Assembly: GCA_022813865.1 (NCBI GenBank)
Contig: JALDZX010000021.1
Span: 310,001 to 373,562 of the forward strand
Direction of reading: 5' to 3'
DNA length: 63,562 nucleotides
Source of the DNA: Xylographa opegraphella
Lineage: Eukaryota
In this document: positions 28,131 to 32,446 of the stretch, piece by piece
How positions within the stretch are numbered: the stretch's first letter is position 1
Layout of the letters: each line of letters begins with the position of its first letter
Made by a program: the position numbers and the translations under genes
Notes under the pieces: generated by a model
Database searches by the model: none
Told to the model about the DNA's origin: nothing
The model's input: only the letters and a program-made list of their open reading frames with translations

Positions 28131-28446
28131 TCTACGTTTCTGCAGTTCAAGACAAGCCTCGGATGGAATGAGAAATTATCTTTCAAGGAAAATGTTGCAG
28201 TTTTTTTGATTGTTGAGTATTCCATTGGAGAAATGGTAACAGGGCACCATTTTATCTTGTTGTTGTGTCCTGTACCCCTTGTACTTCAAGAGACTTTAGG
28301 TAGTGATAGTTTTGCCATGAAAAGATCAGCCAATCGCAAGCATTGATAATGCCATAGTAACGCCTTTCCTCATCCGCACAAGCGTAATTCCAGCAGAGCA
28401 AAAAAAGCAGGCTCGATTTCGCAGAAGACACGAATAGAGATTCAAC

Positions 28447-28980
28447 ATGGCAGAGCCCAAATCTGAATTGCCAGAATGCGTTAAGGACTACATGCGACTT
28501 GCAATCGAGTTGGCCAAGCAGTCACCTCCCCAACCGACCAATTTCTGCGTGGGTGCAATCTTGGTCGATGAGGCCGAAAACAAAACCCTAGCGACCGGAT
28601 ACACGCTGGAACTCCCAGGGAACACACACGCAGAGCAGTGCTGCCTCCAGAAATTTGCAACTCAGCATGGCAAATCTGAAAAGGACATTGCGGATCTACT
28701 GCCAACGAAAAGTGCGATATACACTACCATGGAGCCCTGCGGAAAAAGGTTGAGTGGGAATCTGCCTTGCATTGACCGAATTCTCAACACACGGAATGGT
28801 CTCAATGGGGGCATCAAGACAGTATATCACGGAGTTGCAGAGCCTGAGACTTTTGTGGGTCAAAACACTGGCAGAGGAAGACTGGAGGCTGCTGGTATCC
28901 AATGCGTCCATGTCTCTGGCTTTGAGCAGGAGATCTTGAAAGTGGCCACCGCAGGCCATCCTCGCAAAGAGGATGCCTGA
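28447..28980 (+). CDS. Stand-alone cytidine-deaminase-fold protein (RIB2/DRAP deaminase-like)
   Basis: Zn-binding motifs HAEQC and TTMEPCGKRLSGNLPC; TGYTLELPGNT. Confidence 0.88.
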   Translation: MAEPKSELPECVKDYMRLAIELAKQSPPQPTNFCVGAILVDEAENKTLATGYTLELPGNTHAEQCCLQKFATQHGKSEKDIADLLPTKSAIYTTMEPCGKRLSGNLPCIDRILNTRNGLNGGIKTVYHGVAEPETFVGQNTGRGRLEAAGIQCVHVSGFEQEILKVATAGHPRKEDA

Positions 28981-29206: not shown

Positions 29207-30141
29207 ATGAGTAGAACTATCACTTCACAACTGAACAAATTTGCCAGAAGCCCTAAATTCCCAAGCACAGCTATCAAACCGATTTACCAATCCCGTAACA
29301 TGGCTTCCTCCGACGTCAATGTCGAGAACACCAACATCAAGACCGCCGCAGGCGTCAGCCTTGACGAGCACCAGAAGACTATTGTTGGCAGTGTACTTGA
29401 CGTTAGTCTTGCAATATCCCCCAAGCATAACTATCCACTAACCAATTCACAGCTCTTCGCAGGCCGACCCTCGTTGAAGAAGCTCCAATTGTGGGACGAC
29501 AACGGCGTTTTCCAGGATCCTATCACAAAAGCCGAAGGACGAAAGCAGTATGAGCCTCAATGGGTATGTGTAACTCTTAATCTGCACTCCATTCCTCCGC
29601 TAATAATGATGCTCAATAGTATGGCCTCCAAACCGCATTTTCGGAAATTGAGCGTCTCCACCACGAGGTCACCGATGCTGGCAACCCAATCAAGATGGAC
29701 CTAAAGACTCGCTATGTTGTCAAGGGAATCGGCAAAGAGCAGACCATCTCAAGCAAAATCCAAATCTACCTCGACAAGTCGACTGGCAAGATCACCGAGG
29801 TTCAAGACAAGTGGGATGGAAAACTTCCCGACAGCTCCTTCACCAACGTAAGTATTGATCAACTCTTCAGTCCTTGGTGGTGGGTGCACTATGCGGAAGG
29901 GTGGGTGTGGTGGACGTGGAGCTTCACGTGGAATACGTGGTGGTGGCAGGTGTGTGGGAGTTGTTTGCTTTTGCCCGCCTGCGACAACATCTACGCGAAC
30001 CTAATCTTTGACGATTCCTCAAGGTACCCATGCTAACAGATTTTGGTACAGATCTTCCGCCAGCTCAACTCTGTCACTGTGCCGGCCTTCGTCAGTGTCC
30101 CCAAGAACGACGAGGAGGACGCCAAGAGGGGTAACCAGTGA
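29207..30141 (+). CDS. Hypothetical protein, probably NTF2/SnoaL-like fold; in-frame ATGs at 29207 and 29300; introns 29402-29452, 29564-29619, 29848(or 29950)-30051
   Basis: Spliced product reads ...GSVLD|LFAGRPSLKKLQLWDDNGVFQDPITKAEGRKQYEPQW|YGLQTAFSEIER...KITEVQDKWDGKLPDSSFTN|IFRQLNSVTVP. All splice sites are canonical. Confidence 0.85.
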
Positions 30142-30383
30142 TGTGCTTATTGTCATAAAAATTGTACCATAACCATACAATCAAGCCTTCGGCTTTGGGT
30201 AGCTGTAGCGATCGATGAAGAAAAGCATGCTATCTTTAAATATCCAAATCATAATAGTTCCTTTTATTGATCTCGAAGGAGAAACAATTGTGGCATCAAA
30301 AATCAGCTCCGAAATCACCCATACGCAAACCCTCCATGGTATCATGCACCCCGTTGAAGCGGCCGGTTCCCCCTACCCTGTCG

Positions 30384-31028
30384 TCATATCATCGAGCCAT
30401 CACCATCCTCTCCTTTCCTCCCGCTTACACCTTCCGAACCCCCCTCCGCCAACGCCTCCGCCAGCGTCACCTCACTCCCCGCATACCGCTCACTCCCCTC
30501 GCGCTCCCGCCCCGCCTCCAAATCCACATACCCCCTCGCCCGCGGATCCCGCCTCACACTCTGCCGCAGCGTCGCGAACTTTCCCTCCTCCCCGACAACC
30601 CCAATCCGTTCCCGCCCTTCCTTGCTAGCAAAAAAACCACGCACGCGCTGCGCAAGCGAGACGCTCCGATCCGTCTTGTGCACTGTGGGCGCCACTGAGC
30701 CGGCCGCGATTGCGGATTTCAGCGGAGGGCGAGGGGCGCGGCGGGCGAGGGGGGTGTGGTGCCGGTGCTTGTAGTAGGCGAATAGGAGGCCGAGGATGAG
30801 GAGGGAGACGAGGATGACCGGGAGGGCGATGGTGCAGGCTTGGGTGCAGGTTTGCGTACTGGGTGGGGGGAGGGCGCCGCCGTAGTGGTTGGTTATAGGG
30901 AGGGTGGGGGTGGTTGTGGAGGGGGGTGTTGTTGAGGGTGAGGTTGTGGTTGAGGTTGAGGTTGAGGTTGTGGTTGAGGTTGCGGAGGGCGAGTCGAAGG
31001 GGGAGGCCAGGGGGGGAACGAATGTCAT
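30384..31028 (-). CDS. Hypothetical single-pass membrane protein with a Ser/Thr-rich N-terminus
   Basis: Thr/Ser tract, then TM segment IALPVILVSLLILGLLFAYY followed by basic KHRH. Confidence 0.7.
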   Translation of the reverse strand: MTFVPPLASPFDSPSATSTTTSTSTSTTTSPSTTPPSTTTPTLPITNHYGGALPPPSTQTCTQACTIALPVILVSLLILGLLFAYYKHRHHTPLARRAPRPPLKSAIAAGSVAPTVHKTDRSVSLAQRVRGFFASKEGRERIGVVGEEGKFATLRQSVRRDPRARGYVDLEAGREREGSERYAGSEVTLAEALAEGGSEGVSGRKGEDGDGSMI

Positions 31029-32446
31029 TGTGGGTGAGGAGGAGTTGAGGAGCTCGTTTGTCGTCTGGTCGGAGAGTGTAGGAGGAAATGAAACGAGATA
31101 ATGGGTAGTAGACACAGGGGAGAGAGGTGGTAGGAGATGTGGAAGCAGAAGTAATCTGCTCGTCGAGGAAATCTCACAGAAACCCACAACCGATAAACAA
31201 GCAGAAGCAGGACGGACGAAAATCGCCCTCGATAAAAGGAACAAACAAGAAACTCGGCACGATGCCGGCCTTTAAGCAAAATCTCCCTCCTCCCATTGTA
31301 ATTTCCTATACCGCATCTGCACATTCTCATCCTTCATGATCGACTCCTATCAGCCTCGTAGCCTCCGCCTCGGGCTTGTCAGGTTCTGAAACAAGCACGT
31401 CCTCACAAACAGCAGGGAATCCGATCCTGCCATGTCGGCGTCGCGCCGTGAGGGGCTGCTGTTACGGCGTCGGTAGGGTTCTCATACGCCGTTGTTGGGG
31501 GATCTCGGGGATGAGAATAGAAAAGGTGGCGCTTGGCGGGCAGGGCTGAGGGAGTGGCGTTGTGGGTGTTGGTGCACGGCCACTTTTGGAGGGCACGGAC
31601 CATACAGGGTGGCTTGTGCTTAATTGTTTAACTCAACTGTTCTTCGTCTTTGATAACCTCGCTGTTGTCAGAAAGGGATAGGGTTTTTAGGCGTGAATAC
31701 CGATGGCTGTTCTTCTGTCTTCAGCAATTCTTGGTGATTACGATGTGCACCAAGCAGATAATGGCACAGCTTCAAAGTACGCTTGACACGGTCTGGCTGA
31801 TTTGGTCGTTAGTTGCGCTCGCCGAGTTTTTACATACTTACTTCACTCCTAATTAATGGTTCTGGGAAGAATCATGTGCTTTATTATGATGCCACCCTTC
31901 TTGTATAGGCAGCTTTGTGGACGTCTCTGCTCCGGATCCTGAGCTTACTTCTCTGCTTACAGGGTTATTCTGTTTAACGCCTTTGATGGTTGTTTCCTCC
32001 GGCATCAGTATCTTCTAGAAGTGACTCATTCTCTACCTGGTAGAGAATGAGTCTGTCGCTCTATTCATATTCACTACTCGACTTTGTCAAATTCGTCGTC
32101 AGTGAAAACTTCCATCATCGCAGACCCACCATCATCTGTCATCCTGTGCACAAACTCGCACCTCAAATCAGCTGTAATGAAACAATGACGAAGGGCGTCA
32201 TGTGCTAAACCATTTCTGTCTCGTCGTTTCCTATTATCAGATTTTATGTAATCAGTACAATAGCGAGCGCTCAGCCACAATTGTCGACCATTAATGCTTT
32301 GTGGTCTAGTTTCCTTCCGAAGTTCGTGTGAAACCCTATACAATTACATTCCTACTTTCTCCGAAACGTCCAGATCTTCCTTGGCTGAATCTGTGAGTCC
32401 CTAGGGTAGCCATCAAGTTGTGAAATAGAAATGTTTCGACATCCCT

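Follow-up and report, generated by a model that had tools for sequence, protein, structure and literature searches.

To our knowledge, fungi seldom conserve alternative splicing for its function, and documented cases outside the budding yeasts are few. In yeast PTC7, a translated retained intron encodes a transmembrane helix, so that splicing yields either a mitochondrial isoform or one bound to a membrane, an arrangement that is conserved across species; the same source describes fungal splice choices that give two functional proteins as rare and anciently conserved (PMC7491326). SKI7/HBS1, MDH, and FES1 are among the genes with such choices. Trp-rich peptides can also act as anchors. In CGI-58 (ABHD5), such a peptide is described as anchoring proteins to lipid droplets independently, and its structure has been deposited as PDB 5A4H (PMC4646293). 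Here, we describe a gene for an NTF2-like protein on the + strand of a 63.5-kb stretch of DNA from Xylographa opegraphella (the window). We consider it fairly probable that, in this small gene of the Pezizomycotina, a conserved pair of same-phase alternative donors adds or removes a coding, tryptophan (Trp)-rich cassette of 34 codons (29848-29949, + strand), which may switch a membrane anchor on and off.

The locus shares features with each of these systems and departs from all of them. The likeness to PTC7 is that splicing would decide between a soluble, mitochondrial-type form and a form with an extra hydrophobic helix; furthermore, many relatives of the window gene carry a presequence-like N terminus. 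However, the cassette would depend on two competing donors and one acceptor, whereas PTC7 uses simple retention. Full retention in the window meets an in-frame TAA (30034-30036), which terminates any intron-retaining reading, and only 2 of 24 lineages have an uninterrupted, in-frame intron behind the cassette. The cassette is also rich in Trp, and its scores lean toward an interfacial over a transmembrane position; the two protein families are unrelated, PTC7 being a PP2C phosphatase. With SKI7/HBS1, MDH, and FES1, the locus would share a rare and ancient splice choice that yields two proteins and retargets them, but those are other genes, mostly of the Saccharomycotina. In CGI-58, a short Trp-rich peptide is likewise appended to a globular domain. 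Yet that anchor is N-terminal, has three Trp residues in about 12, and has no splice switch, which the cassette would have. There is no sequence similarity between the two, since a PDB sequence search with the cassette gave 0 matches at E values up to 10, and the comparison is one of analogy only. The cassette would join a known class, in which conserved alternative splicing adds a membrane-binding segment, and would be distinguished by its Trp density and by a donor lying inside frozen codons. We know of no NTF2-like or SnoaL_2 protein with a Trp-rich insertion, and few conserved peptides known to us are as dense in Trp as the cassette.

Paired donors in the last intron

The initial annotation had placed two same-phase donors 102 nucleotides (nt) apart in the last intron, with a common acceptor, and the coordinates proved exact. 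The upstream (distal) donor, AAC/GTAAGT, occupies 29848-29853 and also serves as the Val-Ser codons with which the cassette begins, while the downstream (proximal) donor, CAG/GTGTGT, occupies 29950-29955. Both are in phase 0 and share an acceptor that reads ...GGTACAG, with its last base at 30051. Exon 3 ends at 29847 or 29949, depending on the donor chosen, and both splice products stay in frame into the last exon. A branch-site-like GCTAAC lies at 30032-30037, 15 nt upstream of the acceptor end. The intron measures 102 nt from the proximal donor (29950-30051) and 204 nt from the distal donor. The latter had been called unusually long, and it is so for this gene, whose first two introns measure 51 and 56 nt.

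According to the mechanism that we propose, use of the strong upstream donor (29848) would give a compact protein of 176 amino acids (aa), or 207 aa when translation begins at the ATG at 29207. Use of the weaker downstream donor (29950) would add a stretch of 34 residues, including 11 Trp, after the NTF2-like domain and ahead of the C-terminal tail. We expect that both donors are used in X. opegraphella, in a balance between a strong donor whose intron is long (150-204 nt across the family) and a weak donor with an intron of typical length (48-102 nt). The Trp-rich helices would then serve as an interfacial anchor, such that splicing would determine whether the protein is soluble or bound to a membrane. 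The short product from the annotated start is identical to the GenBank model for X. opegraphella (P0112), and thus the public annotation counts the whole 204 nt as intron. In doing so, the GenBank model leaves out a conserved segment of 34 residues.

A scan of metagenome contigs returned 45 related loci, which were dereplicated together with the window at 97% nucleotide identity into 25 lineages. Across these lineages, the upstream hexamer was GTAAGT in 13 and GTGAGT in 7, making GTRAGT in 20 of 25, with GTTAGT, GTGGGT, GCAAGT, ATAAGT, and GTGCAT each found in a single lineage. We compared the codons that form this donor with control Ser and Val columns drawn from the same sequences. The cassette Ser codon was AGT in all 23 lineages that have Ser there, whereas ratios of AGT to other codons at control Ser columns were 14:11, 7:17, and 15:5 (Fisher p of 2.6e-4, 1.6e-7, and 0.016), and the ratio of GTR to GTY at the cassette Val codon was 22:1 versus 16:53 at three control columns (Fisher p = 4e-10), p values that overstate independence because the lineages are related. 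The control Val columns were dominated by GTC and GTT. Conservation of the downstream site was of a similar kind, with G at +1 in 25 lineages, T at +2 in 22, G at +3 in 19, G at +5 in 24, and T at +6 in 18. The second codon of this site varies between Arg, Cys, and Gly (CGT, TGT, and GGT). Retention of GTGNGT across three different residues points to a constraint on the nucleotides and not on the residue.

Some lineages have lost one donor of the pair. GT is missing at the downstream site in L014-16, L020, the pseudogene-like L023/25, and L044; in L035, it is the upstream GT that has been lost (ATAAGT). In L014 and L020, the cassette is still open and the last exon still conserved despite the missing downstream GT, which leaves the upstream donor as the sole site that can reach the last exon in frame. 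By the alignment, then, losses of the two donors are reciprocal among lineages, and the overall pattern supports a conserved alternative 5′ splice pair with a shared acceptor. Two further observations concern the sites without a downstream GT. In four lineages, the dinucleotide is replaced by GG or TT. The 54-nt intron of L014-16 has no stop and keeps the frame, and its retention would yield the long form plus 18 residues.

Hints at the RNA level come from proteins of relatives. We classified 210 homologous proteins by regular expressions, counting only the exact removal of cassette plus intron as evidence of splicing. The cassette was skipped exactly (N/AFR) in 34 proteins, was joined straight to the tail in 31, and was followed by read-through of the intron in 133 (117 without the tail and 16 with it), leaving 12 outside these classes. 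Contiguity of the upstream exons was rejected as proof of a complementary DNA (cDNA) origin, introns 1 and 2 having been lost in many genomic lineages. Cassette-skipped proteins from non-NCBI sources are plain open reading frame (ORF) calls on contigs of about 0.9-1.9 kb (P0162, P0165, P0172, P0184, P0186, P0205, P0210, P0231, P0234, P0235, P0237, P0274, and P0278). They represent several lineages of Dothideomycetes on metatranscriptome-derived or cDNA-length contigs; P0235 stands for 44 sequences from 16 contigs, and the cassette is likewise skipped in four proteins of a "merc" cluster. We infer that this label stands for the MERC catalogue, in which 775 metatranscriptomes of marine eukaryotes were assembled at the protein level (10.1101/386110). 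In these lineages, the genomic DNA holds both cassette and intron (e.g., P0222 versus P0235), and the cassette-skipped ORFs must therefore come from spliced RNA. The upstream donor is used in relatives. For the downstream donor, the best hint is locus AC578_5497 of Pseudocercospora eumusae, for which GenBank has a 253-aa and a 222-aa protein that differ only by a 31-aa cassette, in a genome that was annotated with MAKER2 and Trinity RNA-seq assemblies from two media (PMC4981473). The earlier suggestion of a splice-switched segment gains comparative support from the two P. eumusae forms, the skipped products, and the conservation of both donors as nucleotides.

The cassette as a coding segment

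The cassette encodes VSIDQLFSPWWWVHYAEGWVWWTWSFTWNTWWWQ, a stop-free peptide of 34 aa with 11 Trp and three WWW runs. As the initial annotation had stated, the TGG triplets fall in the coding frame, with counts of 11, 0, and 0 in the three phases. Among 100,000 mononucleotide shuffles of the 102 nt, none reached 11 in-frame TGG (any-phase maximum of 8) and only 13 had at least 11 TGG in total. Every other stop-free stretch of 34 codons in the six frames of the window encodes at most 6 Trp. Tandem Repeats Finder (TRF) identified no tandem array in 29500-30300 at a score of at least 30. On the opposite strand, there is a Pro-rich open frame of 83 codons (29749-30000, - strand). It is rich in Pro because CCA complements TGG, and we regard it as a by-product rather than a gene because wobble sits on the third positions of the sense strand.

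Homologues were sought with the read-through ORF (window 29620-30036) as the query, which yielded 489. The best 120 matches, with one sequence representing each cluster, were listed. Among the matches listed, the cassette is contained in many models of about 212 aa in NCBI, both from Dothideomycetes and from lichen-forming Lecanoromycetes, and in these models the conserved tail, AFRxLNxVxVPK...EEDAxRGN, adjoins it directly. The cassette is also present in one metagenome-assembled genome labelled Claussenomyces (Leotiomycetes). A profile built from 22 cassette sequences and searched against 1.84 billion representative proteins gave 50 matches at E values of at most 0.001, of which 49 are visibly in the context of the NTF2-like family and 1 is a fragment that begins at the cassette.

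The reading frame is preserved throughout these relatives. Exon 3 is open through the cassette in 41 of the 45 metagenome loci, and the cassette is in frame and free of stops in 22 of the 25 lineages. Those with stops in the cassette (L023/L025 and L043) are also stopped within exon 3 and look like decaying copies. L023 and L025 (1501-1975) are near-identical metagenome copies with several stops in exon 3 and the cassette; the changes look like C>T/G>A (CAG>TAG-type, TGG>TAG/TGA) and resemble decay of a duplicate by repeat-induced point mutation. Cassettes invariably consist of complete codons (34, 35, or 31), and the intron that follows them is 48-102 nt in relatives and cannot be aligned.

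Within the cassette, substitutions are of a coding type. Trp is invariant at codons 88, 100, 104, and 109 (23/23) and at codon 87 in all 22 ungapped sequences. The other 7 of the 11 Trp positions, among them the leading Trp of the first WWW run and two in the final one, are replaceable by Phe, Tyr, Leu, Arg, Gly, Pro, and others. Synonymous wobble occurs at the conserved residues P85, Y91, S101, F102, Q81, L82, and T106. For example, Pro85 is encoded by four codons and Leu82 by six, Tyr91 by TAT or TAC, Ser101 by AGT or AGC, and Phe102 by TTC or TTT. Entropy at the three codon positions was 1.03/0.91/1.41 for the non-Trp columns of the cassette, compared to 0.69/0.48/1.38 for the rest of exon 3. 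The ratio of nonsynonymous to synonymous differences (pN/pS) in five close pairs was 0.27 for the cassette and 0.10 upstream of it; across all 253 pairs, which are saturated, the values were 0.43 and 0.31. These patterns are those of a protein segment under purifying selection, less tight than that on the NTF2-like domain. The view of the initial annotation that this is not neutral intron is borne out by the in-frame relatives, the invariant Trp residues, and the third-position wobble. Its wording as an extension of the 5′ splice site fared less well. The alternative donor pair stands. However, the segment is an ordinary exon in most annotated relatives, and the language of an intron extension therefore misleads; judged by these comparisons, it is better called part of a conserved cassette exon. 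One group departs from the general pattern: in Cladosporium-like proteins (P0177, P0182, and P0222-P0224), the cassette is divergent and Trp-poor, for example VSKPWTNAVDPRFWANYWLGWSYSLLVFVHDRWWWM. The long form may be relaxed in this group, whose short form abounds on cDNA-length contigs (P0235).

Protein fold, proposed anchor, and surrounding sequence

Predicted structures give the protein an NTF2-like fold of the SnoaL type. Pfam scores for SnoaL_2 (PF12680), which has a cut-off of 27 bits, were 29.0 for relative P0085, 22.7 for P0023, and 14.2 for the short product of the window (P0112). DUF2358 scored 15-18 bits (cut-off of 24.3), and Pfam returned nothing for the read-through ORF and no match for the last exon. 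AlphaFold2 (AF2) models consist of an alpha+beta, NTF2-like cone with helices followed by a curved sheet. Foldseek returned 379 PDB matches at E values of at most 0.001, led by limonene-1,2-epoxide hydrolases (E of 6e-7, target TM of 0.66 to 5cf1) and then PhzA/B and NsrQ. The fold resembles that of limonene-1,2-epoxide hydrolase and SnoaL_2 proteins, but identity is only 14-19%. In the model of the window's own short product (predicted local distance difference test [pLDDT] of 86.9, predicted template modeling score [pTM] of 0.83), the tail is ordered and a helix at residues 143-152 crosses the splice junction at 147/148. The model for the long form of relative P0023 (pLDDT of 73) has an NTF2-like core, a low-confidence linker, and a disordered tail, and places the cassette in helices at 158-177 and 180-190 with pLDDT of about 70-78 and 58, respectively. 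In Protein Atlas, we found only generic SnoaL-like and DUF2358 clusters. Searches on Trp-rich NTF2-like membrane proteins, on fungal alternative donors and localization, and on DUF2358 found no literature on this family; the DUF2358 literature found concerns plants, algae, or mouse only.

Composition of the cassette is compatible with a position at a membrane surface. On scales entered by hand, the interfacial free energy summed over the cassette comes to about -17.8 kcal/mol, and its best stretch of 19 residues scores an unfavorable +9.6 on the translocon scale and -13.7 on the octanol scale. Based on the modeled helices and on the analogies above, it is plausible that the cassette is an interfacial (monotopic) anchor to a membrane or lipid surface.

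The rest of the gene bears on where such a protein might reside. In the public model, exon 1 (29300-29401) begins at the ATG at 29300. An in-frame upstream ATG opens 31 additional codons, MSRTITSQLNKFARSPKFPSTAIKPIYQSRN (29207-29299), as a candidate N-terminal extension with 6 Lys/Arg, 0 acidic, and 8 Ser/Thr residues. Similar in-frame extensions occur in 7 of 9 relative loci in which exon 1 was found, and MRPF...-type N-terminal extensions occur in both transcript-like and annotated relatives. The extension is probably a mitochondrial-type presequence, judging from its residues, and the two starts suggest that alternative initiation could yield mitochondrial and cytosolic forms. Exon 1 is followed by intron 1 (29402-29452; 51 nt, GTTAGT...CAG), exon 2 (29453-29563), intron 2 (29564-29619; 56 nt, GTATGT...TAG), and the core of exon 3 (29620-29847), which encodes most of the NTF2-like beta-sheet. 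The last exon (30052-30141) encodes IFRQLNSVTVPAFVSVPKNDEEDAKRGNQ, the conserved C-terminal tail, and ends in TGA (30139-30141). Introns 1 and 2 are gone in many lineages, and every one of the 24 readable lineages keeps the last intron. Intron 2 is missing from genomic DNA of L002, L013, L014, L017, L020, L027, L029-L031, L039, L041, and L045; both introns are missing from L027, L029-31, and L045.

Two other ORFs flank the gene. The upstream neighbor (28438-28980, + strand) contains a HAEQ...PC..(9)..PC pattern, which we take to be typical of cytidine/deoxycytidylate-type deaminases. Some NCBI models from the Teloschistales (P0138 and P0140; 343 aa, PF00383) fuse this deaminase-like neighbor with the NTF2-like gene, and as a consequence of these fusions the deaminase-like P0383, P0419, and P0411 share 90% clusters. 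The downstream ORF (30384-31271, - strand) is convergent and has 295 codons; Ser, Thr, and Pro abound in its product, which contains a single hydrophobic stretch, ALPVILVSLLILGLLFAYY.

Competing explanations and wider meaning

An alternative to the paired use of donors is that only the upstream donor contributes to mature mRNA and that the cassette is translated solely through intron retention, followed by a short unconserved tail, in the manner of PTC7. The transcript-like sources are in keeping with this account, consisting of cassette-skipped forms together with forms in which the cassette is read through into the intron (P0151, and P0255 on a 1118-nt contig), as are the four lineages that have an open cassette without a downstream GT. 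We nonetheless consider it unlikely. The downstream site is conserved, as GTGNGT, in 22 of 25 lineages across differing residues while the rest of the intron is unalignable, and an isoform with cassette plus tail is annotated beside the short one in P. eumusae. Moreover, with the post-cassette intron so rarely open, retention would usually forfeit the conserved C-terminal tail. The opposite account, in which the cassette is constitutive, the upstream GTAAGT is cryptic, and the short form is an artefact of gene prediction, would fit the 31 classified NCBI models that hold the cassette and its conservation as protein. It is quite unlikely given the skipped proteins on metatranscriptome or cDNA-length contigs from lineages with a genomic cassette, the synonymous positions of Val-Ser that are frozen to the donor consensus, and the lineages (L014 and L020) that can reach the last exon only from the upstream donor. 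The short form also models compactly and with confidence in AF2.

Two further explanations, both raised by the initial annotation, would attribute the Trp codons to something other than the peptide. One is that the segment works as RNA, whether as a UGG- or G-rich splicing enhancer or as a G-quadruplex, and that its open frame is incidental. The cassette does have 13 G runs of at least 2 and two possible two-tetrad motifs, and it lies just downstream of a donor. Yet it has only three runs of three or more G and no canonical (G3+)x4 motif, and the predicted RNA fold across both donors was unexceptional (z = -0.87; 35 of 200 shuffles were at least as stable). Furthermore, indels preserve the frame, wobble falls on third positions, and aromatic swaps are conservative (W to F or Y), a codon-like mode of change that makes a purely RNA-level element very improbable, although the segment may have some function as RNA in addition to coding. 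The other is that UGG density turns the long form into a sensor of Trp availability through charged tRNA-Trp, for which 11 UGG in 34 codons and three WWW runs might be cited. We rate this as the least probable of the explanations, since the free replacement of seven of the Trp positions in relatives speaks for an aromatic or structural role and not for a need for UGG codons, and nothing in the locus is tied to Trp metabolism.

Several points weigh against our own reading, that alternative donors switch an anchoring cassette. The RNA-level evidence is confined to relatives of X. opegraphella. All 31 forms in which cassette and tail are joined are gene predictions in NCBI records, and no transcript-like form of this kind occurred among the 210 classified proteins, among 64 junction-region matches, or among 33 fetched of 187 cluster members, an absence that we take as weak counter-evidence. 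The sole metatranscriptome-derived carrier of the cassette, the merc protein P0151, continues into the intron and is thus unspliced or intron-retaining. The hint from P. eumusae presumes that MAKER2 gives two isoforms only with transcript support. The relatedness of lineages tempers the codon tests, constraint on the cassette is looser than on the rest of exon 3, and the cassette is degenerate in Cladosporium. With respect to anchoring, the basis of the idea is limited to the composition of the cassette, a helix in a predicted structure, and analogy. With Trp on every face, the cassette helix shows a low hydrophobic moment and so is not a classical amphipathic helix. Finally, AF2 performed far better for the short form than for the long form, although the two models are not strictly comparable because the long-form alignment held many read-through tails. 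A more ambitious version of our reading would date the switch to the ancestor of Lecanoromycetes, Dothideomycetes, and Leotiomycetes, with a mitochondrion-directed protein, a new type of all-round Trp-helix anchor, and an output that may be coupled to Trp supply, Trp codons being about ten times denser than usual. We regard this combination as possible and, on the whole, doubtful.

The reading that we favor, a conserved choice between two donors that adds or removes the cassette, would have consequences for how such genes are recognized. The consensus of a 5′ splice site is frozen within two codons, and for this reason a splice switch can be recognizable from DNA alone. The frozen donor codons span three classes of Pezizomycotina. 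Public annotations of the NTF2-like family are divided, with 34 short and 31 long models among the 210 classified. Should the cassette prove to be a membrane or lipid anchor, it would represent a compact and portable targeting module, and the gene would offer a clean system for the study of donor competition in short fungal introns.

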